Origin: Parcubacteria group bacterium
Lineage (GTDB): Bacteria; Patescibacteriota; Patescibacteriia; Patescibacteriales; GWC2-42-12
Reading direction: 5' to 3'
DNA length: 64,000 nt
Assembly: GCA_016188785.1 (NCBI GenBank)
Contig: JACPHD010000001.1
Location: forward strand, 26,300 to 90,299
Made by a program: the position numbers and the translations under genes. Shown piece by piece: positions 21,810-39,349 of the stretch (positions are counted from its first letter, which is position 1; each line of letters starts with the position of its first letter). The notes beneath the pieces were generated by a model. That model worked only from the letters and a program-made list of their open reading frames with translations. It made no database searches and was not told the DNA's origin.

Positions 21810-21893
21810 AATTTTTTGCTGATTTATAGCTTTATTTTAATAAAAATGCCCTCTTTAATAAAGGGAGCTACATAAATAATCTAAATAATTTTT

Positions 21894-22892
21894 TTAAAGG
21901 CAAGGCGAATATGATAATGATTTAATATAATTTTCCATAAATTCAAAATTAGGCTCGCCTTTTTTATTCACAGGCAAAAAGATTTTTTCTTGCATAATCC
22001 TTGTTCGCGATCTTTTTCTGCCAAAACTATATCTAAACGTTTGCATGTTTAATATTGAAGTAAAAAATAAGGCAATATATTTATTTAGAATAAAATTTAT
22101 TGGTTCTAAAATATTTGGATCACCCGAGGAGCTAAATCTATTTTCTTGATAAAAAGCTTTTCCATCTGTAGCGCCGTCAATCGTGATAACATTTCCATTT
22201 TCAACATACTTGTCAGAAGTACAAACAACCCCATTATTTTTATTGCTGGCTGTTATATATAAATACTCGCCAGAACAAATTTCATCCCTAGTAAAACTTT
22301 TTTTTGTTTTTCTTACATTAAATAATTTTGACAAATCAAATTCTTTAAATTCATTCTTTTTTAGTTTTAAAGCTTTATTTTTAATGATTTTACTATCATA
22401 TCTTATTTCTTTAGATAAACCTTTAATATAATTTTCCATAAATTCCCAATCAGGTAATTTATTTTTGGTAGCCGGAAGCAGTATTTTTTCTTTTTTTAAT
22501 CTCTCATTATTTATTTCTCTGGCAAAATTATATTTGCTTTTCATTGATTCAATGATTGGCTTAAGAAATAATGAAATATAATTATTTAATTTTATTTTTT
22601 TGTCTTTAATTTTAATTACTGTGCAATGGTCAGAGGCAACAAACTTGTAAGGGTGATAAAAACAATAACCAACGCTCCCGCTATTATTTAGTGTTAGTGC
22701 ATTCTTATATATCTTCATAAAACTCGGAGGAAGTATATAATTATCAACCCCATTATTTTTTTTGCTTGAAGAAATATACGATATATCACCCATAACTTGA
22801 TCTATTTTTACTAATCTCTTTCCCCGTGATATGGTAAAAACTTTAGCAAAATTAAATTCTTGCCAATTATTTTTATTAATCTTCATAATCAT
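21894..22892 (-). CDS. Specificity (S) subunit, HsdS/BcgIB-like with two TRD+CR halves
   Basis: Internal duplication: 'K(I/L)(F/L)LP..K...P(N/D)(F/W)EFMENYIK(S/G)LS' occurs twice. Confidence 0.6.
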   Translation of the reverse strand: MIMKINKNNWQEFNFAKVFTISRGKRLVKIDQVMGDISYISSSKKNNGVDNYILPPSFMKIYKNALTLNNSGSVGYCFYHPYKFVASDHCTVIKIKDKKIKLNNYISLFLKPIIESMKSKYNFAREINNERLKKEKILLPATKNKLPDWEFMENYIKGLSKEIRYDSKIIKNKALKLKKNEFKEFDLSKLFNVRKTKKSFTRDEICSGEYLYITASNKNNGVVCTSDKYVENGNVITIDGATDGKAFYQENRFSSSGDPNILEPINFILNKYIALFFTSILNMQTFRYSFGRKRSRTRIMQEKIFLPVNKKGEPNFEFMENYIKSLSYSPCL

Positions 22893-23295
22893 CGCCGTTA
22901 TTATTTAAAATTTCAGCCGCCCTAATATTATTCTCATTAAGAATTTCTAGTAATGTAATTTCATCAATATCCTTATCTAGCAAATCTAATTTTAGTTTTG
23001 TAGAGAAAATAACATACTCTTTAATGCTTTTTTCAAAAGTCTTTTCTGATAAATTATCATAATTTGTTTTTGCATGTGCTTGAATTATCCACTCGTCATT
23101 TCCTATTATTTCTTTATAGACTAAATTTATAAAATCTTCGTTTTCTTTTGGACGGTTAAGTTTTTTTAATAAATCTTTTTTTATACCATTCCATTTGTCT
23201 AAAACATCTGTTCTTCCTTTATTTTTAGATAAAACAAGACCATCATTTTTTAAATCATAAAAGACAACTTTGTTGTTATTATGAGGTTTATTTGT
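22876..23295 (-). pseudogene. Met-less 140-codon ORF, in-frame continuation of the upstream RM gene after a TAA
   Basis: Translation after the TAA at 23296-23298 reads TNKPHNNNKVVFYDLKNDGL...NNGDDYED with no stop until it overlaps the S-subunit start. Confidence 0.5.
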
Positions 23296-24858
23296 TTAAA
23301 AAACTGCTATGGCGGTATGCGTTGAGGCATTTGGTTGAAATAACTCAATCGGCATATTAATAACATATTTTAATGTGTGTTTTGATAAAATTCTATTTCT
23401 ATCAATATCATCTTTAAAATATGTGGAGAGCGGGGCAATTATAACCCCGTATCTACTAGAATTATCTAGCATCTTTTCTAAAAATTGAATTTCTTTTTTA
23501 GTGGGATTTTTTTTATTATCTTTACCGCCATACGGAGGATTTACAAATCCTATTGTAGGTTTATTCGGTAACTTATTTAAAATATTGTTTGTTTCATTTG
23601 AGAAAAAATCTTCATTAAAAATTTGAGATTTTCCATCTCCCCTAAAAAGCATGTTAGAAATCGCCAATGAATACATTGTACTACTTTTTTCAAGTCCAAT
23701 CAGTTGTTTGGTTTTTATATTTTTAATTCTTTCTTTTTTATCTGATAAATTTGATTTTTCAATTTCATCAACAAGTTTATTCATTCCCGCGATTAAAAAC
23801 GCCCCCGTTCCGCAAGCCGGATCAAAAATTACATCGTTTGTCTTAATATCAATTAATTCTGTAAATAAAGTAGTGATATGATTTGGAGTTAATATAATTC
23901 CTTTTTTTACACTTGTTATCCCCGCGTATCTTAAAAATTCTTCATAAAATTTTCCTATTATATCGTATGAAGTTTTTTTATCAAAAAGAGGTATTACTTT
24001 TTCTTCAAGTTCTTTTAAAATATCTTTTAAAATATTTGTGGAATTTAAATCATTATCAGTTTTTATAAAAGTTAATTCATTGGTTAATACCTCTATCTTA
24101 TTTTTATCAATTTTCTCACTTTCTAAAATATCGCTTATGGTCGTAGGCATATTTCTAATAATTGTTTGGGTATTCCATAAACTATAACTATTTTTAAAAT
24201 CTGACCCGCTATCTTTTGGGTATAGACAAATCATTAAAGCGCTTAAAAGCACCGGTCTTTTTTGAGAATCTAAGTTTCTTAACAACCTATTGATTTCGCT
24301 TGATGATTTTGAAATATCATTAGATATTTTTTCTAAATCAATGTTCTCAAAAAAAGCTAAATAATCTTCTTCGTCTAAAATTTCACTCTTACTAATATTT
24401 TGAATAAAGTTATTTTCAATAATATAAGTATCAAGTCTATGATTATATTCATCATTAATATCTCCAGAAAAAGCAATTCCTACTATTTTCCAATTTTTTA
24501 AATATTTTTTTATTGTTTCTTTTTCTTGACTTAATTTTTCGCTTGTGAAAAAAGATAAATAATGTTTTATTCCGTCAACGGCAAAATCCACAGGATCATC
24601 TTCATTTTTAGAAACATGGTTTTTTATTTGATCTTTATTTTCAATTAAAATCAATAATTTTTTTATTTCATTTACATAAATCAAATCCGGATAACCATGT
24701 TTTCCAGTTTCTTTTTTGCTTGTTTTATCTAAAATTTCTTGAATATATTTATTATTTTGTTTCTGGACATTCCAGCTATTAGTATACCGCCTATTCTCTT
24801 TAATAAAATTAAATAGATTAATATCTGTTTTTGCTTCGTTTTTTCTCAAATTTGCCAT
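23296..24858 (-). CDS. Type IIB/IIG (BcgI-A-like) restriction-modification subunit: N-terminal PD-(D/E)xK nuclease plus gamma-class N6-adenine MTase
   Basis: 'YPDLIYVNEIKKLLILIENKD' (PD...ENK). MTase motif I 'FDPACGTGAFLIAG', motif IV 'NPPYGG'. Confidence 0.7.
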   Translation of the reverse strand: MANLRKNEAKTDINLFNFIKENRRYTNSWNVQKQNNKYIQEILDKTSKKETGKHGYPDLIYVNEIKKLLILIENKDQIKNHVSKNEDDPVDFAVDGIKHYLSFFTSEKLSQEKETIKKYLKNWKIVGIAFSGDINDEYNHRLDTYIIENNFIQNISKSEILDEEDYLAFFENIDLEKISNDISKSSSEINRLLRNLDSQKRPVLLSALMICLYPKDSGSDFKNSYSLWNTQTIIRNMPTTISDILESEKIDKNKIEVLTNELTFIKTDNDLNSTNILKDILKELEEKVIPLFDKKTSYDIIGKFYEEFLRYAGITSVKKGIILTPNHITTLFTELIDIKTNDVIFDPACGTGAFLIAGMNKLVDEIEKSNLSDKKERIKNIKTKQLIGLEKSSTMYSLAISNMLFRGDGKSQIFNEDFFSNETNNILNKLPNKPTIGFVNPPYGGKDNKKNPTKKEIQFLEKMLDNSSRYGVIIAPLSTYFKDDIDRNRILSKHTLKYVINMPIELFQPNASTHTAIAVF

Positions 24859-24945
24859 ATCGTTTTATTGATATAAACTAGGATTATTTAAAGCTCTCTA
24901 TAATTATAGCGTAATTTAGCTTAAAATAAAAATTAGAATCAAAGT

Positions 24946-25560
24946 TTAAGCGAATTTTCTAATCACTCCCCTGACCACTCCCTGAATTAGCGGGTCGGCC
25001 GCGTAAATCGGCTTCATGGCTGAATTAGCCGGCTGCAGTCTGATGCGCGCCTGCTCGCGGTAAAATTTTTTCAAAGTGGCATAAGCATTGTTTAAAAGCG
25101 CTACCACCACATCGCCGTTTTGCGGCGACGGATTGCGCTCCACGATTACATAATCGCCGTCTAAAATTCCGTCTTCAATCATTGATTCGCCTTTAACTTT
25201 TAAAACGTAACTATTGGCGCTGTCGGTTACGAAATCAGCCGGCACGGCGATCGTGTCTTGTTCTTCAACCGCTTCGATCGGTTCGCCGGCTGTTATCAGG
25301 CCGACTAACGGCAATTCTAAACTGGCGGTCCAATTCACGGCCGTGGGAATAATTTCAATTGAGCGCGCTTGATTAAACGAAGTTTTTAGCATCTGCTTTT
25401 TCTCCAAAGTTTGCACATGCGCGTGAATCGTGGCCGGACTGGCTAAATTAAAATGCCGGCCGATTTCTCTTAAGCTGGGCGCGTAGCCGTTATCGCGCGT
25501 AAATTCAGTTATAAAATCCAGAATTTGCCTTTGTCTTTTGGTTAAATTGTTGCCCATATA
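24946..25560 (-). CDS. lexA: LexA repressor (HTH plus S24 peptidase)
   Basis: 'ITAG' cleavage site, Ser in 'KGESM', Lys in 'ATLKK'. Start taken at MGNNLTKRQRQIL. Confidence 0.85.
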   Translation of the reverse strand, partial: YMGNNLTKRQRQILDFITEFTRDNGYAPSLREIGRHFNLASPATIHAHVQTLEKKQMLKTSFNQARSIEIIPTAVNWTASLELPLVGLITAGEPIEAVEEQDTIAVPADFVTDSANSYVLKVKGESMIEDGILDGDYVIVERNPSPQNGDVVVALLNNAYATLKKFYREQARIRLQPANSAMKPIYAADPLIQGVVRGVIRKFA

Positions 25561-25597
25561 GTTTATGTTAAAAATTAGTTTTCCACAATACTCTTTT

Positions 25598-25626
25598 ATC
25601 ATACACGAACAAAATACGAAAGTCAA
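25598..25626 (-). promoter_or_regulatory. lexA promoter: TTGACT-N17-TATGAT with direct repeat TTCGTA-N5-GTTCGTG in the spacer (putative operator)
   Basis: Read on the minus strand: TTGACT TTCGTATTTTGTTCGTG TATGAT. Confidence 0.55.
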
Positions 25627-25727
25627 GAGCTTGCGCTATTTTGACTATTTTTTTTATTTATGCTTTAATAAATATTAACTGGCTCTGTCACCTTTTAACT
25701 TCAAAACTCTTAACAGGGGGATGAAAA

Positions 25728-32315: not shown

Positions 32316-33660
32316 CGGCGCGTGTCAATGGTTTGCACTCGTCCATGTCATACTTAACACCAGGGAGTGCAAAATATGTTAAACCATAGTAATATCTGTA
32401 GATTTGGCCATTTAAGCCAAACTAAAGCTACAGATATTATGCAAACACAAGCTGAAATAAAATTAAACCCTTTGCGGTGTTATCTTTCGCCGGAGGCGAA
32501 AAAAAGATTAAAATGGATGTATCTTGTAAAATACGAATGTGCCAATAATATTTCGCAGGCGGCCAACCGCCTCGGCATTTCTCGCGTCTGGCTGTCTCAA
32601 ATTCACAGCCGCTGGCAGAAACATCGCGAAGACCCCAGGAGTCTGGAGCCGGAGTCAAAAGCGCCGCATGACACGAGCAACCGTAAACGGATTGATGAAA
32701 AAGTTGAAAATAAAATTGTTGAAATCAGAAAAAAATACCAGCCCTGGGGCAAAGACAAATTATCGGTCATTTTAAAAAGGGATTATCAATTAATGGCCGG
32801 AGCCTCCACCGTCAATCGCTATCTCGTAAAACATAACCTGATTGATCCGAAACTATCCGAGAAAAATAAACTGGCCTGGCAGAGAAAAAAAGAAAAGGCA
32901 AATCTGAAATTTAAAATGAGGCCGCCGGCGGTAATCAAAGATTACAAACCCGGGGCGCTCTTAGAAAAAGACATGAAATTAGTCCTGAAAATGGGTATAT
33001 TCACTAACATGAATAAGCATCGCGCTAAAGAAAACTTCTGGTATCAGCATACCTTAATTGATTCTTTTACCCGCGTCAGAGCCGTTGGTTTAGCCGAGGA
33101 TTCTAACAGCCAAACAGCGGTAGCGGTTCAGGAGCAGGCGGTAAGCCGCCTGCCCTTCGCCATCGCGGCGATAAACAACGACAACGGCGGTGAGAATGAA
33201 AAAGATTTCTCTGTTTATCTGGAAAAAGAAAAAGTGGCTCAATTTTTTTCCCGCGCCGGCACGCCGACAGATAACCCGCGTGTTGAACGCTCTCATCTAA
33301 CGGACGAACTGGAATTTTACGCCCAAGGCAATCTGCATAAAAATTTTAACGATCAGGCTAAGGCAATATCAGAATGGGAACACACTTACAATTTCGTCCG
33401 GCCGCATCAGGCTCTCGGCTATCTAACACCCATGGAATTTTACAGGCTCTGGCAGAAAAACCCCGAAGAGGCCCATCGGATTAAAAATAAATACAGCGCT
33501 TATCTTAAAAAACAAAGTCGTCGTTTGGCTAAATCCAGACAAATGAAAAACAAGGAACAAATTGAAAATCTAATGAAATTTATTGATAAAAAATTGTCAA
33601 AATCTAATTCTTAAAAGTGTTAATTATGTTCGTGGACTTGAACATGTTATCAATGTTAAA
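32316..33660 (+). mobile_element. IS481-like insertion sequence (approximate ends, imperfect TIRs)
   Basis: Left end 'TGTCAATGG...CATACTTAACAC' versus right end 'GTGTTAATTATG...CATTGATAACA' gives partial inverted identity. Higher GC than the flanks. Confidence 0.45.
32367..33614 (+). CDS. DDE transposase (rve integrase core, IS481-like) with N-terminal HTH
   Basis: 'ISQAANRLGISRVWL' HTH. rve core '...NDNGGENEKDF...', 'RPHQALGYLTPMEFY'. Confidence 0.8.
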   Translation: MQNMLNHSNICRFGHLSQTKATDIMQTQAEIKLNPLRCYLSPEAKKRLKWMYLVKYECANNISQAANRLGISRVWLSQIHSRWQKHREDPRSLEPESKAPHDTSNRKRIDEKVENKIVEIRKKYQPWGKDKLSVILKRDYQLMAGASTVNRYLVKHNLIDPKLSEKNKLAWQRKKEKANLKFKMRPPAVIKDYKPGALLEKDMKLVLKMGIFTNMNKHRAKENFWYQHTLIDSFTRVRAVGLAEDSNSQTAVAVQEQAVSRLPFAIAAINNDNGGENEKDFSVYLEKEKVAQFFSRAGTPTDNPRVERSHLTDELEFYAQGNLHKNFNDQAKAISEWEHTYNFVRPHQALGYLTPMEFYRLWQKNPEEAHRIKNKYSAYLKKQSRRLAKSRQMKNKEQIENLMKFIDKKLSKSNS

Positions 33661-33716
33661 TTTGCTTTTCTCTATATCATCGTCATTATTAAGGTTTTTA
33701 ACCACTAAAAATACTT

Positions 33717-34286
33717 TTATTTTATCCTGAAAATTTCCTTGATTTTATTAACATTTTCTTTGGCCGCGAAAAAAGCTTCAATAAAAGCTGATTTAGGTAT
33801 CATTCTGCCTTCTAAGGCTTCTCTCTTTTTCGTAAAATCCCAGGCAATTATTGGATCCTGGTATATATAGAATATCACAACCGGCCGCGAATGGTCTAAC
33901 GATCTTTTAACATTTTTATAAGAAACATCATACTTGGAAAACGTCCCATCAACTATCGCCTCTAATTTCTTGGCGAGAATATGGTCATACAGCTTTTCAA
34001 CTCCAATTGAAGAAGCACCTTGGACAACATCAGAATTCTTACCATTATATTGAGGCATAATTTCTTTGATTTCATCGGCGTCGATCCTAACTAATTTCTT
34101 ATCCAATATTTTGGCTAAATTTTTAGAGAATTCGGTCTTGCCCGCCCCCGGCGAACCGGCCATAAAAATAGTAACTGGATTTACAATCGATTTATAAAAA
34201 TCAGGCTTAGCAAATTTTTCAATTAACAACTTTCTATTTTTCTTTATAAATTTTTTTGCTTCTTCCGCTTCTTTAATATTTATCAT
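33717..34286 (-). CDS. Zeta-toxin/AAA_33-like P-loop kinase
   Basis: Walker A 'MAGSPGAGKT'. 189 aa. Confidence 0.55.
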   Translation of the reverse strand: MINIKEAEEAKKFIKKNRKLLIEKFAKPDFYKSIVNPVTIFMAGSPGAGKTEFSKNLAKILDKKLVRIDADEIKEIMPQYNGKNSDVVQGASSIGVEKLYDHILAKKLEAIVDGTFSKYDVSYKNVKRSLDHSRPVVIFYIYQDPIIAWDFTKKREALEGRMIPKSAFIEAFFAAKENVNKIKEIFRIK

Positions 34287-34359
34287 GCTTTTATTATATC
34301 ATAAAATAATAAAAATATTAAAGAAACCAAAATATCACTTTATATTGGGAGCTTTGCTC

Positions 34360-34580
34360 AAGTTGGCTGGCATTTTACGAATTAGCTCGAACCGAATTTA
34401 AAAAAAGGTTTTAAACTATCTTTTAAAAGCGCCTCTGCCGGCAGGCAGGCGCCCCCGCTTTTAAAAGCAAACATTTTCCCGCGGGCAAAGCCCGATTTCA
34501 GGCGATTTCAAGTTTTTCTGCAGGCGAAAGCCCTCTCCGCCCCGCTTCTGCTGGGCGATTTGGCGGCAAATTATTTTTTG
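34360..34580 (+). repeat. ~200-bp repeat family, copy B (left flank of the R-M module)
   Basis: Begins 'AAGTTGGCTGGCATT' (like the tRNA-Gln 3' end). Core is near-identical to the inverted copy C. Confidence 0.75.
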
Positions 34581-34613
34581 TTTTATATCTACATTTGGAA
34601 CTAAGATTATAAA

Positions 34614-36131
34614 TTAATAATTGATAATTGGAAAACCTCTTGAACTTAAGATATTATTGAACTCTTTTCGAAATAAGAATACCGCGTTTTTTCTTTCTTT
34701 CTTGTAAAGAGTATTCACAAAAGGGTCAAAATCCCAATTCGTGTATTCTGGCGTAGCAAGTTTACTTTTCATAAATTTTTTAATACCAACAGCCTGCATT
34801 ATTTGCACTATTTCCTCGAATTCACGAATACCACATAAGGAATAAGGCATTTCTTCTAACCACTCTTTAGGCAATCCATTTTGTCTTAATTTTTCTATGA
34901 CTTTATTTTTTATTTCTTGGTAAATAGGATCTGCAAATGAATACCACTCCTCTAATGTCAAAATAACTGGATAAATTTCCCTTTTTTTGTCATATGGAAA
35001 ACTTGGATACTGTTTATCTATATGATCTTTTATGGTTTTATAAACCTGAACTATCGCATCAGAAATCTTTTCAAGTTCTTTGTCTAATAATAAAGTATCA
35101 TTTAATTCTATTTTTGCTGGTACAATTAGCCTTTTTGTCTTACATTCAATAAATAATGCGGCATCTTTTTCGTCTAATATCCAATCAACCGTATTTTTTT
35201 TATTTTTCTTCGGCCCATATTCTTCTTCGGGATAAATTGTCATTTTCTTATTGGCTTTATTTAATACCTCGCCAACATATTTCTGGAAAGTAAATCCAAA
35301 AGGTTTGTCAAAATCTTTTTCGCGACAAATCTCATAATAAATTCCGCTGGTAAACCGCCAATATAATAAAGTAGTCAATGGACAAAAGTAAACATTATCT
35401 CCTTTTAATTTATTTTTTATTATTGGGTATAATCTTAACATATAAGTATTATAAGCAAATTTTTCATCAACTGAGTGTTCACTTTGTATAATTTTTTTAA
35501 AATCATCCAGATCAATAGAAATTATGTTAAATAATTTTTTTATCTCATCATTAGTTATCCCTTTTATATTCGTACTAAATGGTTCTTTGATGATAAAATT
35601 ATTCTTGTAATGACCAAGTAGTGATGCGCCCATTAAAAATAAATTTTCGTAGTGTAAGCCGACTTTTTTATATAATATTTTATCAATGTCCAGTTCGTTA
35701 AAAATTCTATAATATCTATAAAAATACATGAGATTAATATTTAATTGCCACGGGAACTGTCTATGCGCAAGTCTAAACAATTCCTTTAAAACATTATTTT
35801 TATCAACATGACATAATTTATTTTCAATTTCCTTGATTTTATTTATTGCGCCAATAAAGTAATTCCATTTTTTTAATGTTTCCAATCCCTTTTCAGTATC
35901 TTGCGAATTAAGTATAATTTCACGCAATAAAAGTTCTAATTCCCATTGGTAAATCCTTTTTTCAGGTAAAGTTTTTGCATTAATAAATTCTGGTATAGTC
36001 TCGATATCGTTAGGAAACGAATTTCCAAATTGCAGATGGTTCGAATAAGCCCATATTACACAAAATGATTCATTTATGCTAAGTTTTCTTAAATGATTTT
36101 TCAATGGTTTGTATAATGAGTAATTATCCAT
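34614..36131 (-). CDS. Hypothetical protein with a possible PD-(D/E)xK motif (LDEKDAALFIECKTK)
   Basis: 505 aa, divergent from the LexA-MTase gene with an 88-bp shared promoter region. Confidence 0.4.
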   Translation of the reverse strand: MDNYSLYKPLKNHLRKLSINESFCVIWAYSNHLQFGNSFPNDIETIPEFINAKTLPEKRIYQWELELLLREIILNSQDTEKGLETLKKWNYFIGAINKIKEIENKLCHVDKNNVLKELFRLAHRQFPWQLNINLMYFYRYYRIFNELDIDKILYKKVGLHYENLFLMGASLLGHYKNNFIIKEPFSTNIKGITNDEIKKLFNIISIDLDDFKKIIQSEHSVDEKFAYNTYMLRLYPIIKNKLKGDNVYFCPLTTLLYWRFTSGIYYEICREKDFDKPFGFTFQKYVGEVLNKANKKMTIYPEEEYGPKKNKKNTVDWILDEKDAALFIECKTKRLIVPAKIELNDTLLLDKELEKISDAIVQVYKTIKDHIDKQYPSFPYDKKREIYPVILTLEEWYSFADPIYQEIKNKVIEKLRQNGLPKEWLEEMPYSLCGIREFEEIVQIMQAVGIKKFMKSKLATPEYTNWDFDPFVNTLYKKERKNAVFLFRKEFNNILSSRGFPIINY

Positions 36132-36153
36132 AATATTTATAAAATTAAATGTT

Positions 36154-36182
36154 TTGACTTCGGTAAATCTTCGGTATATACT
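36154..36182 (+). promoter_or_regulatory. Promoter of the LexA-MTase gene: TTGACT-N17-TATACT with direct repeat CTTCGGTA-N3-CTTCGGTA in the spacer
   Basis: Read directly; same architecture as the lexA promoter at 25598-25626. Confidence 0.6.
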
Positions 36183-36219
36183 ATAAATATAACATGTGGA
36201 TAAATAATGTCAAATAACT

Positions 36220-38712
36220 ATGCCTACTCTAACGAAGAGACAAAAGCAAATTTTAGACTTCATTCGTGAGTATATTAATAAACATAATATATCCCCTACC
36301 TTTGAAGAAATTAAAAAACATTTTAGATTATCTGCGCTATCTACCGTACATCAGCATATTGAAGCATTAATCAAAAAGGAATTTTTAGTAAAAAATAATA
36401 ACTTATCAAGAGGACTCGAGTTAAAAACAAAAGGGGAAGACATAGTTGAAATTCCTTTACTCGGCGTGATTGCTGCTGGTCAACCGATCGAAGTCTTTGA
36501 AGAACACGAGACTATAACCGTTCCGCGCACCAATTTATCTAACGCCGGTGAACATTTCGCATTGAAAGTACAAGGCAATTCCATGATTGATGAAGGAATT
36601 TTTAATGGCGATACTGTAATTATCAGAAAACAAAATACGGCCAGCAACGGAGAAACTATAGTGGCTATAATAAATGGCAATGAAGCGACATTAAAAAAGA
36701 TATATAGATTTCAAAATGGTTTTAGGTTACAACCGGCGAACCCAGAAATGAAACCGATCTTTGTAAAAAGTTTGCTTGTCCAAGGTAAAGTTGTAAGTGT
36801 TATAAGAAACTTTGAAAACAATACTATCATTGAACAAATTTCTAGCAATGAAGAATATATTGTTTCCAAAGAATATTCGGAAAAAGGTATAAATTTAGAT
36901 CAGCTCATAAGTGAGCTGGTAAATTTTAGAGATATTATAATATTTAAATACGGCTTTAATACAGCAGATGATTTTTTAAAAACACAAATTATTGACGGCT
37001 TAATTCTACAAGAAATTTTTAAGCACATCGCAAATAAAAAAAATGTAAATACTAACATCCAAGCAATAAACGAAATACTGAAAGAACTAAACCTAAATCA
37101 TGTAGAATTTACAAAGGATGATATAAAAATTTTTGGGGATATTTTAAAAAAATACAATTTTAGTAGCTGCGATGATGATGTGCTTGGTTTTATATATCAA
37201 AGCATTAGGCCCCAGAGTGGCAGAAAAGATGATGGCCAATATTACACCCCCAAAAAAGTAGTTAAATATATTTTAAATAATGTAAAAATAAATTTAAAAG
37301 AAAACAAAAATTTAAAAATTTTAGACCCAGCCTGTGGATCCGGACAATTTTTGCTGGAAACATACGATATTTTGTATAACCAATACAAAACAATGGGTGA
37401 AAAAAACGAAGCGGACATCCATTACAAAATCATTAATAATCACTTACTTGGCTTTGATATAGATAAAATCGCCGTGAGTTTGGCTAAACTTAATTTATTT
37501 CTAAAATCAAAAGGTACGTATACAGAAAAATTTAATATTTTAATAACAAATACGCTTAAGCGAGATTCTAACTTACTAGAACCAAATCAATTGGACAAAT
37601 ACAAAGGCAGTATTGATTTTGTAGTGGGCAACCCTCCCTGGGGAGCAAATTTAAATGAAGAACAAAAAAAATATTATAAAAAGCATTATGATATAGGAAA
37701 AAATGGATTAAACACATTTACTCTTTTTATTGAACGTGCTTTTGATTTTCTTAAAAAAAATGGAAAATTAGGATACTTAATACCTGAGGCCTATCTAAAA
37801 ATTAAAGTGCACCAACTTTCTCGCCTGCAAATATTAAATAGAGCCAAGATACTACTCCTTGGAATTAGCGGGGATATATTTCAAAAAGTTTACGCTCCTT
37901 GTTTAGTAATAATTTTCCAACAAGAAAAAGATAAAACAGCCAGGGAAAAAAATGAAATAAATATAGAAAATGGAGTTTTCAACGGACATGAAGAACATAA
38001 GACGATAATTCAAAAAAATTTTGAAAAATCCGCTGAAAATATTTTTAACATCAACCAAGTCGGCGAAACTGAAGAAATACTAAACCATATCCTTGAACAA
38101 AAAAATTATTATCTTAAAGATAACGCATTATTTATATTAGGTATCGTAACCGGTAACAATAAAAAGTATCTAATCCGAGAAAAGAAAGACAATAAATATT
38201 CCCCTATTATAGTGGGCAAAGATATAAGCAAATATAAAATCAACTTCAGCGGCAATTATTTTATCTATGACAAAAACATACTCCAGCAAATTGCTCCGAA
38301 AGAATATTATACCGTACCTGAAAAAATTATTTACAAGTTTATTGGAGAAAAAATCACATTTGCTTATGACGATAAACAATATTTTACTTTAAACAATGCT
38401 AATGCATTCGTGCCTAAAATAGAAAAAATAAAAACCAAATATATTTTGGCCTTATTAAATTCAAAATTGATGCAATTTTTTTACAATAAATCTTTTTTTA
38501 CCGTAAGAGTACTCCGTGGCAATTTAGAAAAATTGCCTTTAGTTTACGCGGATCAAAAAAAACAAGAACAAATTATCAGCCTAGTTAATCAAGCAATAAA
38601 TTCAGAAGAAGATAGAATACTAAAAATAATTTTAGACAAAATTGACGACGAGGTATTCTCTCTTTATAAAATATCAAAAAAGTGGCAACAATATATTTGT
38701 AAAGAGACATAA
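36220..38712 (+). CDS. Fusion protein: complete LexA (HTH plus S24 peptidase) fused to a gamma-class N6-adenine DNA methyltransferase with a C-terminal TRD
   Basis: aa 1-200 are LexA-like ('VIAAGQPIE', 'QGNSM', 'ATLKK'), a close paralogue of the lexA at 24946. Then 'LDPACGSGQFLL' (motif I), 'GNPPWG' (motif IV) and ~300 aa TRD. No stop or frameshift between the parts. Confidence 0.8.
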   Translation: MPTLTKRQKQILDFIREYINKHNISPTFEEIKKHFRLSALSTVHQHIEALIKKEFLVKNNNLSRGLELKTKGEDIVEIPLLGVIAAGQPIEVFEEHETITVPRTNLSNAGEHFALKVQGNSMIDEGIFNGDTVIIRKQNTASNGETIVAIINGNEATLKKIYRFQNGFRLQPANPEMKPIFVKSLLVQGKVVSVIRNFENNTIIEQISSNEEYIVSKEYSEKGINLDQLISELVNFRDIIIFKYGFNTADDFLKTQIIDGLILQEIFKHIANKKNVNTNIQAINEILKELNLNHVEFTKDDIKIFGDILKKYNFSSCDDDVLGFIYQSIRPQSGRKDDGQYYTPKKVVKYILNNVKINLKENKNLKILDPACGSGQFLLETYDILYNQYKTMGEKNEADIHYKIINNHLLGFDIDKIAVSLAKLNLFLKSKGTYTEKFNILITNTLKRDSNLLEPNQLDKYKGSIDFVVGNPPWGANLNEEQKKYYKKHYDIGKNGLNTFTLFIERAFDFLKKNGKLGYLIPEAYLKIKVHQLSRLQILNRAKILLLGISGDIFQKVYAPCLVIIFQQEKDKTAREKNEINIENGVFNGHEEHKTIIQKNFEKSAENIFNINQVGETEEILNHILEQKNYYLKDNALFILGIVTGNNKKYLIREKKDNKYSPIIVGKDISKYKINFSGNYFIYDKNILQQIAPKEYYTVPEKIIYKFIGEKITFAYDDKQYFTLNNANAFVPKIEKIKTKYILALLNSKLMQFFYNKSFFTVRVLRGNLEKLPLVYADQKKQEQIISLVNQAINSEEDRILKIILDKIDDEVFSLYKISKKWQQYICKET

Positions 38713-38716
38713 ACGA

Positions 38717-39349
38717 TTAAATAATTGCCGAGAATAAATTTCTTGGTTCGGTAGCAGATTCTTTCATCTGCTCGTAACCTGGGTGCCATTGATAAGTCGC
38801 ATTTGAACCTGTGGTACTGTGCTGTGGAGAAAATTTTGCGCCAAAAATCGGTTTGCCGGCCCTAATATCTCTTTTATTTAAAACCCAATAAAATTTTCCC
38901 TCTGGCGTTATTCCTAAAAAAATATAGTAATTAATCCTTGGGTCTTTTAAACGTATTTGTTCAAAAATAAACTTATTGCCTTGATAAATAGTGGCTGTTT
39001 TAACTTCTATATATTTATTCTTTTTCAATTCTAAAAAATCAGGATTCAATTGATTTTGGTTTCCTCTCTCGAACTTTTTAAGTGCATCTTTACCAGCAAC
39101 ATTCTCGTAATCGGCTCGAAATAAATCCTCTCCGGCACAACCTATTTGGCGTGAACGCAAAAGTTTAAATCGTAAATACAAATCAGCATCCTCAACTTCT
39201 TTGGTTATAGAGATACCTTTTGTCATGGCGAAACCCAAAACAAATTGATAGTTACCTTCATTAATTTTATCTTTCAATAAATCATCCACATCAACGCCTT
39301 TCAGGTGAGCGTCATAAAACCGATTAAATATTTCTTCAATAGTTTTCAT
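38717..39349 (-). CDS. Putative type II restriction endonuclease (PD-(D/E)xK: NPDF...YIEVK)
   Basis: Convergent with the MTase (4-bp gap). Start overlaps the upstream XRE gene (ATGA). Confidence 0.45.
   Translation of the reverse strand: MKTIEEIFNRFYDAHLKGVDVDDLLKDKINEGNYQFVLGFAMTKGISITKEVEDADLYLRFKLLRSRQIGCAGEDLFRADYENVAGKDALKKFERGNQNQLNPDFLELKKNKYIEVKTATIYQGNKFIFEQIRLKDPRINYYIFLGITPEGKFYWVLNKRDIRAGKPIFGAKFSPQHSTTGSNATYQWHPGYEQMKESATEPRNLFSAII

Follow-up and report, generated by a model that had tools for sequence, protein, structure and literature searches.

Does a lexA gene that stands directly upstream of a restriction-modification (RM) system bring that system under the control of the SOS response? 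The question is raised by a 64,000-nucleotide stretch of contig JACPHD010000001.1 from a Parcubacteria group bacterium (the whole stretch is called the window here), in which a free-standing lexA gene is followed by two genes, A and S, that encode a BcgI-like nuclease-methyltransferase and its specificity subunit, all three being co-directional on the minus strand. The answer that we favour, at a probability of roughly 0.55, is that RM expression would be linked to DNA damage by read-through from a LexA-repressed lexA promoter, and that the lexA-A-S order is one form of a layout that recurs in Patescibacteria. SOS-linked control of restriction had already been put forward in a preliminary description of this DNA, and we find it partly supported. 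The absence of a predicted terminator and the recurrence of the linkage speak for it; the lack of a LexA operator at A, a -10-like element of A's own, the lineage-specific insertion of the RM genes and a nonsense mutation in A speak against it. In the window such control would operate by transcription that runs on from the lexA promoter and adds to a weak constitutive level of expression.

The lexA promoter and proposed read-through into A and S

The following features, given in window coordinates, bear on transcription of the three genes.

25598-25626, minus strand: lexA promoter, with -35 TTGACT (25626-25621), a 17-nt spacer and -10 TATGAT (25603-25598)
25606-25620, minus strand: putative LexA operator in the promoter spacer, the direct repeat TTCGTATTTTGTTCG (TTCG-N7-TTCG, of the GTTC-N7-GTTC type)
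25579-25587, minus strand: DnaA-box-like 9-mer TGTGGAAAA in the lexA leader
24946-25557, minus strand: lexA, 203 aa, with winged helix-turn-helix (wHTH) and S24 peptidase domains
24859-24945, minus strand: lexA-A spacer, 87 nt, with a -10-like TATAAT (24908-24903) inside the palindrome CTATAATTATAG (24909-24898)
21849-21865, minus strand: terminator-like hairpin CCCTTTATTAAAGAGGG with a T-run, 3' of S, from a terminator scan

The lexA product matches the Pfam families PF01726 (LexA_DNA_bind, 1e-18) and PF00717 (Peptidase_S24, 5e-30), and its score of 191.2 bits against TIGR00498, for which the curated cutoff is 110.95, makes it a member of the LexA family. By alignment and motif position it has the self-cleavage residues A90-G91 (in ITAGEP), Ser125 (GESM) and Lys163 (TLKKF). 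Pfam, TIGR00498 and these motifs confirm that a LexA gene adjoins RM A and S genes on the same strand, as first described. The end of lexA at 24946 was also correctly placed, but its start is the ATG at 25557 and not 25560, which is the preceding codon. The gap to A is 87 and not 88 nt. Position 25626, the upstream limit of the stretch first described, is the TTG of the lexA -35 hexamer.

The lexA promoter, which is of the sigma-70 type, gave 10 of 12 matches in a promoter scan, and its architecture is kept upstream of lexA in loci L001, L002, L004, L007, L009, L014 and L017. It can be seen that the lexA promoters of relatives have cTTGACTTTCGTATTTTGTTCGTGTATAAT in common, and those of more distant relatives GTTCTATTTTTGTTCTA; because these repeats are shared, we read the putative LexA operator of this group as a direct repeat of the GTTC-N7-GTTC type. 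A paper that cites the dedicated Patescibacteria SOS study agrees with this reading, in that it places the study among reports of direct-repeat LexA motifs. A position-specific scoring matrix (PSSM) built from the lexA-promoter sites of relatives had its best score in the window at lexA (25.4) and scored 12.4 in the promoter spacer of a LexA-methyltransferase fusion gene described below. The direct-repeat pattern occurs three times in the 64 kb; two of these occurrences fall within promoter spacers, namely those of lexA and of the fusion gene. With a repeat between -35 and -10 that is kept in relatives, lexA appears to have an operator of the autoregulatory type at its own promoter. The Gram-positive LexA box GAAC-N4-GTTC was also considered; it gave 12 matches where 13.8 were expected, none of them at lexA, and the direct repeat was preferred.

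No terminator was predicted between lexA and A, so the proposed coupling stands on this point, and the RNA structure of the spacer was nothing unusual when compared with shuffled controls (z = -0.06). A common strand, an 87-nt gap and the lack of a predicted terminator would fit co-transcription; a candidate internal promoter is also present. We propose that LexA would repress its own promoter through the direct-repeat sequence, and that transcripts from that promoter would run on into A and S, with no terminator between, and stop at the hairpin after S. Read-through would then supply A-S mRNA in proportion to SOS induction, and a weak promoter borne by the RM cassette would give basal, LexA-independent expression that sustains maintenance methylation. 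On DNA damage or phage infection, RecA-stimulated self-cleavage of LexA (A90-G91, with Ser125/Lys163) would raise the RM level, and induction would shift the enzyme from mostly methylating to restricting. BcgI needs far more protein for cutting than for binding its site, and recruits extra protomers (PMC3592470); induction would therefore be expected to favour restriction over maintenance methylation.

A different consequence of induction would be restriction alleviation, in which SOS-induced A and S raise methylation and so shield unmodified repair tracts from self-restriction. Type I restriction systems are alleviated after DNA damage, and the co-directional, terminator-free layout is compatible with an effect of this kind. 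However, nuclease and methyltransferase are parts of the same polypeptide, so that induction would raise both, and to judge from the enzymology of BcgI a rise in protein concentration should increase cleavage rather than reduce it (PMC3592470). We consider alleviation highly improbable.

LexA-family genes upstream of RM genes in other genomes

Damage-linked control by read-through gains support from the recurrence of the arrangement. A LexA or S24 gene lies directly upstream of an A homologue in seven of the 23 distinct contexts with enough upstream sequence, and the seven cover three unrelated LexA lineages. If, as we assumed, a genome has some 1-2 S24 genes among about 800-1000 genes, a rough count puts the probability of three independent LexA-upstream events in 23 at ~1e-5. 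Three unrelated LexA lineages at the same position, together with a covalent fusion, therefore make chance an unlikely explanation.

The second lineage, LexA-211, was found in Nomurabacteria, where an A that is 86% identical to that of the window follows a LexA-211 gene after 27 nt. The order there is TerC-LexA-A-S-UvrD, which is unrelated to the window context, and this LexA is 28% identical to window LexA and scores 140 bits against TIGR00498. Five further contexts of the clade (57-92% identical to the Nomurabacteria LexA, TIGR00498 above cutoff) have different flanks, namely MerR, HATPase, Fic/SWIB, a CCA-adding enzyme and a ribosomal-protein operon. Each of the five has a gene for a protein of 637-649 aa at a distance of 0-7 nt from the LexA stop codon. 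This gene carries HSDR_N_2, N6_Mtase and Eco57I domains in four of them, the fifth (L119) having no Pfam match on record, and one or two small genes lie between it and the gene for an S subunit of ~455 aa. A nuclease-methyltransferase gene is thus found downstream of LexA-211 in six of six contexts when Nomurabacteria is included, with gaps of 0-27 nt, and the LexA-211 promoters have a TGACTA-AA-TAGTCA palindrome between -35 and -10. The small genes before S are variable in loci L119-L134 (products of 118-327 aa) and, apart from DUF3800 in L133 and L134, match no family. We also asked if the A family could be the same as the HSDR_N_2-type partner of LexA-211; hhalign aligned the methyltransferase core only, and the two nuclease-methyltransferase families are therefore not equatable from that comparison.

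The third lineage, S24-212, consists of LexA-like proteins of 210-212 aa whose genes precede A in L086, L087, L091, L112 and L115-118. They have wHTH and S24 domains, Cys-Gly at the position of the LexA Ala-Gly cleavage site, and GNSM and IKK motifs; the score against TIGR00498 is 81 bits, below the cutoff. Copies from different loci are 85-89% identical, about as conserved as A, and we therefore take the gene to travel with the cassette. S24-212 promoters carry GTCAA-N4-TTGAC palindromes over the -35. The cleavage-site and Ser/Lys residues are kept in all three LexA lineages, which argues for functional self-cleavage.

An upstream regulator gene might also act as the counterpart of a controller (C) protein, setting both the timing and the steady-state level of RM expression on entry into a new host and using its S24 domain for dimerisation or turnover rather than for SOS sensing. 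Small DNA-binding proteins are encoded upstream of A in other contexts (ribbon-helix-helix proteins in L093 and L101, a wHTH protein in L107; elsewhere nothing recognisable), and the palindromes that S24-212 genes have over their own -35 are typical of autoregulation. In the window, however, the upstream gene is the host's own LexA, whose operator is absent from the A promoter, and there are no C-box-like repeats in the lexA-A spacer. The retention of the self-cleavage residues in the three lineages does not favour this explanation either, and since restriction and modification functions are united in one polypeptide the classical delay of the former relative to the latter would not be needed. 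We judge a C-protein role to be very unlikely.

Damage-linked control is also in keeping with the only other LexA-family gene that tblastn finds in the window.

36154-38712, plus strand: second LexA module, consisting of a promoter (36154-36182) and a LexA-methyltransferase fusion gene (36220-38712)

The fusion gene encodes LexA_DNA_bind, S24, N6_Mtase/Eco57I and TaqI_C domains, so the earlier statement that two of two LexA-family modules in the window are joined to RM genes holds. Its promoter, TTGACT-17-TATACT, contains the direct repeat CTTCGGTA-N3-CTTCGGTA in the spacer, and full-length relatives are present in the representative library (P0361, P0374 and P0481).

Taken together, these contexts suggest that a LexA-family self-cleaving repressor at the head of a nuclease-methyltransferase RM operon is a recurrent Patescibacterial design, and that the layout of the window copies it. 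More tentatively, and with rather less confidence than we place in damage-linked control of lexA-A-S itself, Patescibacteria could have recruited such repressors as standard RM regulators, in the form of a lexA-RM operon (LexA-211, and the window by read-through), a mobile S24-regulator-A-S cassette and a LexA-methyltransferase fusion, with restriction placed under the RecA/DNA-damage signal and turned on by the appearance of phage or damage. RM genes may constitute the chief cargo of the lexA operon in some of these small genomes.

Some further observations were made at these loci. Sites resembling TGTGGATAA or TTATCCACA (9-mers with 0-1 mismatch) adjoin lexA promoters in both LexA clades: they are found in the window at 25579-25587 and, at the fusion promoter, at 36195-36203, upstream of lexA in L001/L002/L009/L014/L017 and upstream of LexA-211 in L083/L119/L122/L125/L127/L130. 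The presence of DnaA-box-like 9-mers at these promoters suggests that lexA expression is connected with DnaA in a manner conserved among Patescibacteria. An inverted repeat, AGTCAA-N14-TTGACT, lies over the lexA -35 hexamer (window 25621-25646). The fusion gene lies within a low-GC (~0.30) island (window 32367-39349) that also contains an rve-family transposase (32367-33614), a zeta toxin (33717-34286) and, divergent from the fusion gene, a GapS1-like gene on the minus strand (34614-36131; NCBIfam 93 bits, below cutoff). Directly after A and S, a single-chain nuclease-methyltransferase gene that includes a target recognition domain (TRD) (~784 aa, 34% identical to A) stands in tandem at L087 5919-8186, L104 2463-4728, L112 6558-8912 and L113/L114 3147-5501, so that two Type IIB-like systems are paired. 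At L092 (2367-5014) two genes, for 557 and 325 aa, precede the A homologue; the second overlaps the start of A and its product has a Walker-A-like SPTGSGKT, a different architecture that possibly includes a motor.

The enzyme, its interrupted gene and the insertion behind lexA

The RM genes have the following features.

22876-24858, minus strand: A, Type IIB nuclease-methyltransferase gene, 660 codons, interrupted
24631-24693, minus strand: PD-(D/E)xK motif YPDLIYVNEIKKLLILIENKD in A (YPD...ENK: P57, D58, E73 and K75)
23803-23823, minus strand: methyltransferase motif I, DPACGTG, in A
23530-23541, minus strand: methyltransferase motif IV, NPPY, in A
23296-23298, minus strand: premature TAA at codon 521 of A, in place of GAA (Glu)
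21894-22892, minus strand: S (specificity/B) subunit gene, 332 aa, two TRDs

A matches Pfam N6_Mtase (E = 5e-22), and the order of its motifs, I and then IV, indicates a gamma-class N6-adenine methyltransferase. All of 47 close homologues have P57, D58, E73 and K75, and with a second subfamily (30-36% identical) included P57, E73 and K75 still occur in at least 90% of the sequences. The nuclease region gave a weak match to VRR_NUC (E = 0.097), and a profile search of PDB sequences with A returned HsdM-type methyltransferase domains only, with no match for the N-terminal domain. In an AlphaFold (AF2) model made from a 74-sequence alignment (pLDDT 83.4, pTM 0.70) the N-terminus has an alpha-beta-beta-beta-alpha-beta order, with D58 before strand 59-63 and E73/K75 in strand 68-75, and by this model it has the PD-(D/E)xK nuclease fold. 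A Foldseek search of the PDB with the model listed Type I HsdM first, followed by BsaXI, BpuSI, DrdV and LlaBIII; the BsaXI alignments span 718-793 columns (E ~1e-11) with low TM-scores of 0.27-0.40, as expected for multi-domain proteins. Intact A matches the PADLOC REase_MTase_IIG models over almost their whole length, with residues 34-619 (614-position model) and 28-620 (637-position model).

S has two Methylase_S stretches in Pfam and matches PADLOC Specificity_II (341-position model) almost end to end (E = 3e-40), and its gene contains an internal DNA duplication of ~500-520 nt (repeats of 501-519 nt). A motor subunit (HsdR/Res) is absent: A and S alone lie between lexA and a zincin gene, and the same two genes are found in Logan contig L081. 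Because of these features of A and S and the lack of a motor subunit, BcgI-like Type IIB is a fair label for the pair, drawn from genes and models. The invariant residues, the PADLOC matches and the AF2 model thus bear out the BcgI-like A with a PD-(D/E)xK domain of nuclease fold and an NPPY methyltransferase, and the Methylase_S stretches, the Specificity_II match and the internal repeat bear out the duplicated-TRD subunit.

The open reading frame first assigned to A, 23296-24858, has the right start but ends at the premature TAA; the frame runs on for 139 codons to 22876. The seeming gap of ~400 nt between this open reading frame and S is the remainder of A, which overlaps S by 17 nt. Alignments of A to Type I HsdM proteins continue across the stop codon, and position 521 is Glu in at least 90% of A homologues. 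Position 23298 is T in the window and G in Logan contigs L081 and L082, which represent the same locus from two other samples and have GAA and an intact A of 660 aa (P0001); the intact allele is present in samples SRR12113422 and SRR12113385. L081 has 4 differences from the window in ~8 kb. L082 has 25, of which 23 are in the 3' half of lexA (24976-25222) and mostly at 3-nt spacing, and its RM genes are identical to those of the window except for the stop codon, a distribution that resembles a recombination patch ending at the lexA/RM junction. The NCBI annotation of A holds the 520-aa stub only (P0049). It appears that A acquired its nonsense mutation recently in this genome; the T might also reflect a polymorphism among strains or an error in the consensus. 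The C-terminal region of HsdM, the counterpart of the lost end of A, serves in binding S. Loss of the last 139 residues would probably disable nuclease and methyltransferase activities together, and as truncated A would be unable to assemble with S, the RM system is probably inactive in this genome.

Several observations weigh against damage-linked control of A and S. The first is this nonsense codon itself, as the intact reading frame expected of a functional Type IIB system is not present here. Secondly, the RM genes are newcomers at this site. The A-S pair has a GC content of 0.26, compared with 0.48 in lexA and 0.41 in the zincin and response regulator genes, and it is absent from all 80 genomic loci encoding relatives of window LexA. 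The closest of these relatives (72-92% identical) keep the order lexA-zincin-response regulator-HlyD. The zincin gene directly follows lexA in L002, L005, L006, L051 and L067, and in L001 (6684-8627), L004 (5593-7503) and L009 (6741-8750) the two are separated by a ~2-kb gene for a membrane protein of ~640-670 aa with C-terminal TPR repeats. From the low GC and the absence from the 80 relatives we therefore conclude that A and S were acquired laterally and recently inserted between lexA and the zincin gene; since the lexA-zincin gap is variable among relatives, it may simply tolerate insertions. Among the 61 co-directional downstream neighbours in the window-LexA clade there are nine IMS/Y-family polymerases, five zincins and one C5-methylase, and no N6-methyltransferase, so that by the loci compared RM adjacency is exceptional in this clade and unique to the window lineage. 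Sixteen of the 23 A contexts, moreover, have no LexA or S24 gene upstream.

Thirdly, nothing in the lexA-A spacer marks A as a target of LexA. A LexA-type operator before 24858, a possibility raised in the preliminary description, is not there: no host-type operator was found in 24830-24960, where the best PSSM score is 1.8 compared with 25.4 at lexA, and the spacer is also without operators of the GTCAA-N4-TTGAC and TGACTA-AA-TAGTCA types. A thus lacks the LexA operator at its own promoter by which members of an SOS regulon are recognised, and LexA control, if any, would therefore be by read-through from the lexA promoter. The sequence that precedes A in L086, L087, L091 and L115 is homologous to the spacer, which therefore appears to have arrived with the cassette; the -10-like TATAAT of the spacer is kept in nearly all A loci, whatever gene lies upstream. 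Such a conserved, cassette-borne element makes LexA-independent expression of A plausible. The -35 of this candidate promoter is poor. An independent promoter, which would count against coupling, is half evident.

These observations would be explained if the neighbourhood were incidental, that is, if a selfish Type IIB module had settled in a permissive spot after lexA and used its own promoter only, with LexA uninvolved. The lineage-specific, low-GC insertion, the other cargo at the same gap in L001, L004 and L009, the conserved TATAAT, the missing operator and the lack of N6-methyltransferases among the 61 neighbours all agree with this. It does not account, however, for the presence of three unrelated LexA-family lineages directly upstream of the same A family, for the RM genes that follow the second LexA clade in every one of its contexts, for the lack of a terminator to insulate A from lexA, or for the covalent fusion of the window's other LexA to a methyltransferase. 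We therefore regard an incidental neighbourhood as unlikely, although it is the most serious of the alternatives.

Members of the A family that share 68-92% identity come from contigs with the labels Moranbacteria, Vogelbacteria, Nomurabacteria, Victivallaceae, Rickettsiales and Moraxellaceae, a spread that is characteristic of a mobile module. Neither a tRNA nor direct repeats were found flanking the insertion, and the intergenic sequences of relatives are too variable to place its exact junctions. Scans of viral contigs with A and with S24-212 found no relatives, and there is therefore no evidence for a phage-borne cassette. The idea that window lexA is a chimera with the S24 gene of the cassette was ruled out, as its 3' end matches RM-free relatives.

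Relation to known systems and meaning

The enzyme itself is of known type. BcgI A has 637 residues and BcgI B has 341, and the products in the window have 660 and 332 aa. As in the Type IIB enzymes BcgI and BsaXI (BsaXI PDB 8W0P/8W2P), A unites an N-terminal PD-ExK nuclease with an HsdM-like N6A methyltransferase, the S-like subunit with its two TRDs is separate, and there is no ATPase; the likeness to BcgI was drawn from the PADLOC family models of 637 and 341 positions and not from the BcgI sequence itself. BcgI has an A2B organisation with subunit masses of 71.6 and 39.2 kDa (PMC3592470). The window pair differs from both enzymes in that A is interrupted by a nonsense codon and in that it stands behind a LexA gene, a placement absent from the Type IIB accounts in the reviews examined.

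Type II RM systems with C proteins also have a DNA-binding regulator gene immediately upstream of, and co-directional with, the RM genes, and in the S24-212 and LexA-211 cassettes predicted operators of the autoregulatory type overlap the regulator promoter. The regulators are nevertheless of the wHTH-S24 LexA type (203 aa in the window, 211-212 aa in relatives) and not Xre-type proteins of ~80 aa, no C-box was seen, and restriction and modification are functions of one protein; the locus is thus not of the C-protein class. With canonical lexA-headed SOS operons, such as lexA with a Y-family polymerase, it shares a putative operator in lexA's own promoter and co-directional downstream genes; the cargo in the window, in contrast, is a defence or selfish RM module and not a gene for repair or mutagenesis. 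An anti-phage nuclease system is coupled to a DNA-damage signal in CapH/CapP of CBASS and in SOS-dependent Type I alleviation. In the loci described here LexA/S24 self-cleavage would act as the sensor, in place of a metalloprotease partner or ClpXP.

Most of what is known of RM regulation concerns C proteins, antisense RNAs and methylation feedback. We found no description of LexA-headed RM operons in the RM reviews and literature searched, which did not extend to the dedicated Patescibacteria SOS study, and the placement of a LexA-family regulator looks, from the loci compared here, like an apparently unreported variant of RM regulation. The practical result for this genome is a corrected annotation, in which A is a single gene of 660 codons that one nonsense substitution has inactivated. 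On its own the window locus, an inactivated insertion with no operator, is modest, yet it points to an apparently unreported Patescibacteria-wide pattern. In the Candidate Phyla Radiation CRISPR is rare, and RM probably serves as the main line of defence. If damage-linked control is correct, these organisms would have an innate defence nuclease that answers to the SOS signal and a simple switch between maintenance methylation and active restriction, and such control would account for the LexA domains that are fused to methyltransferases.

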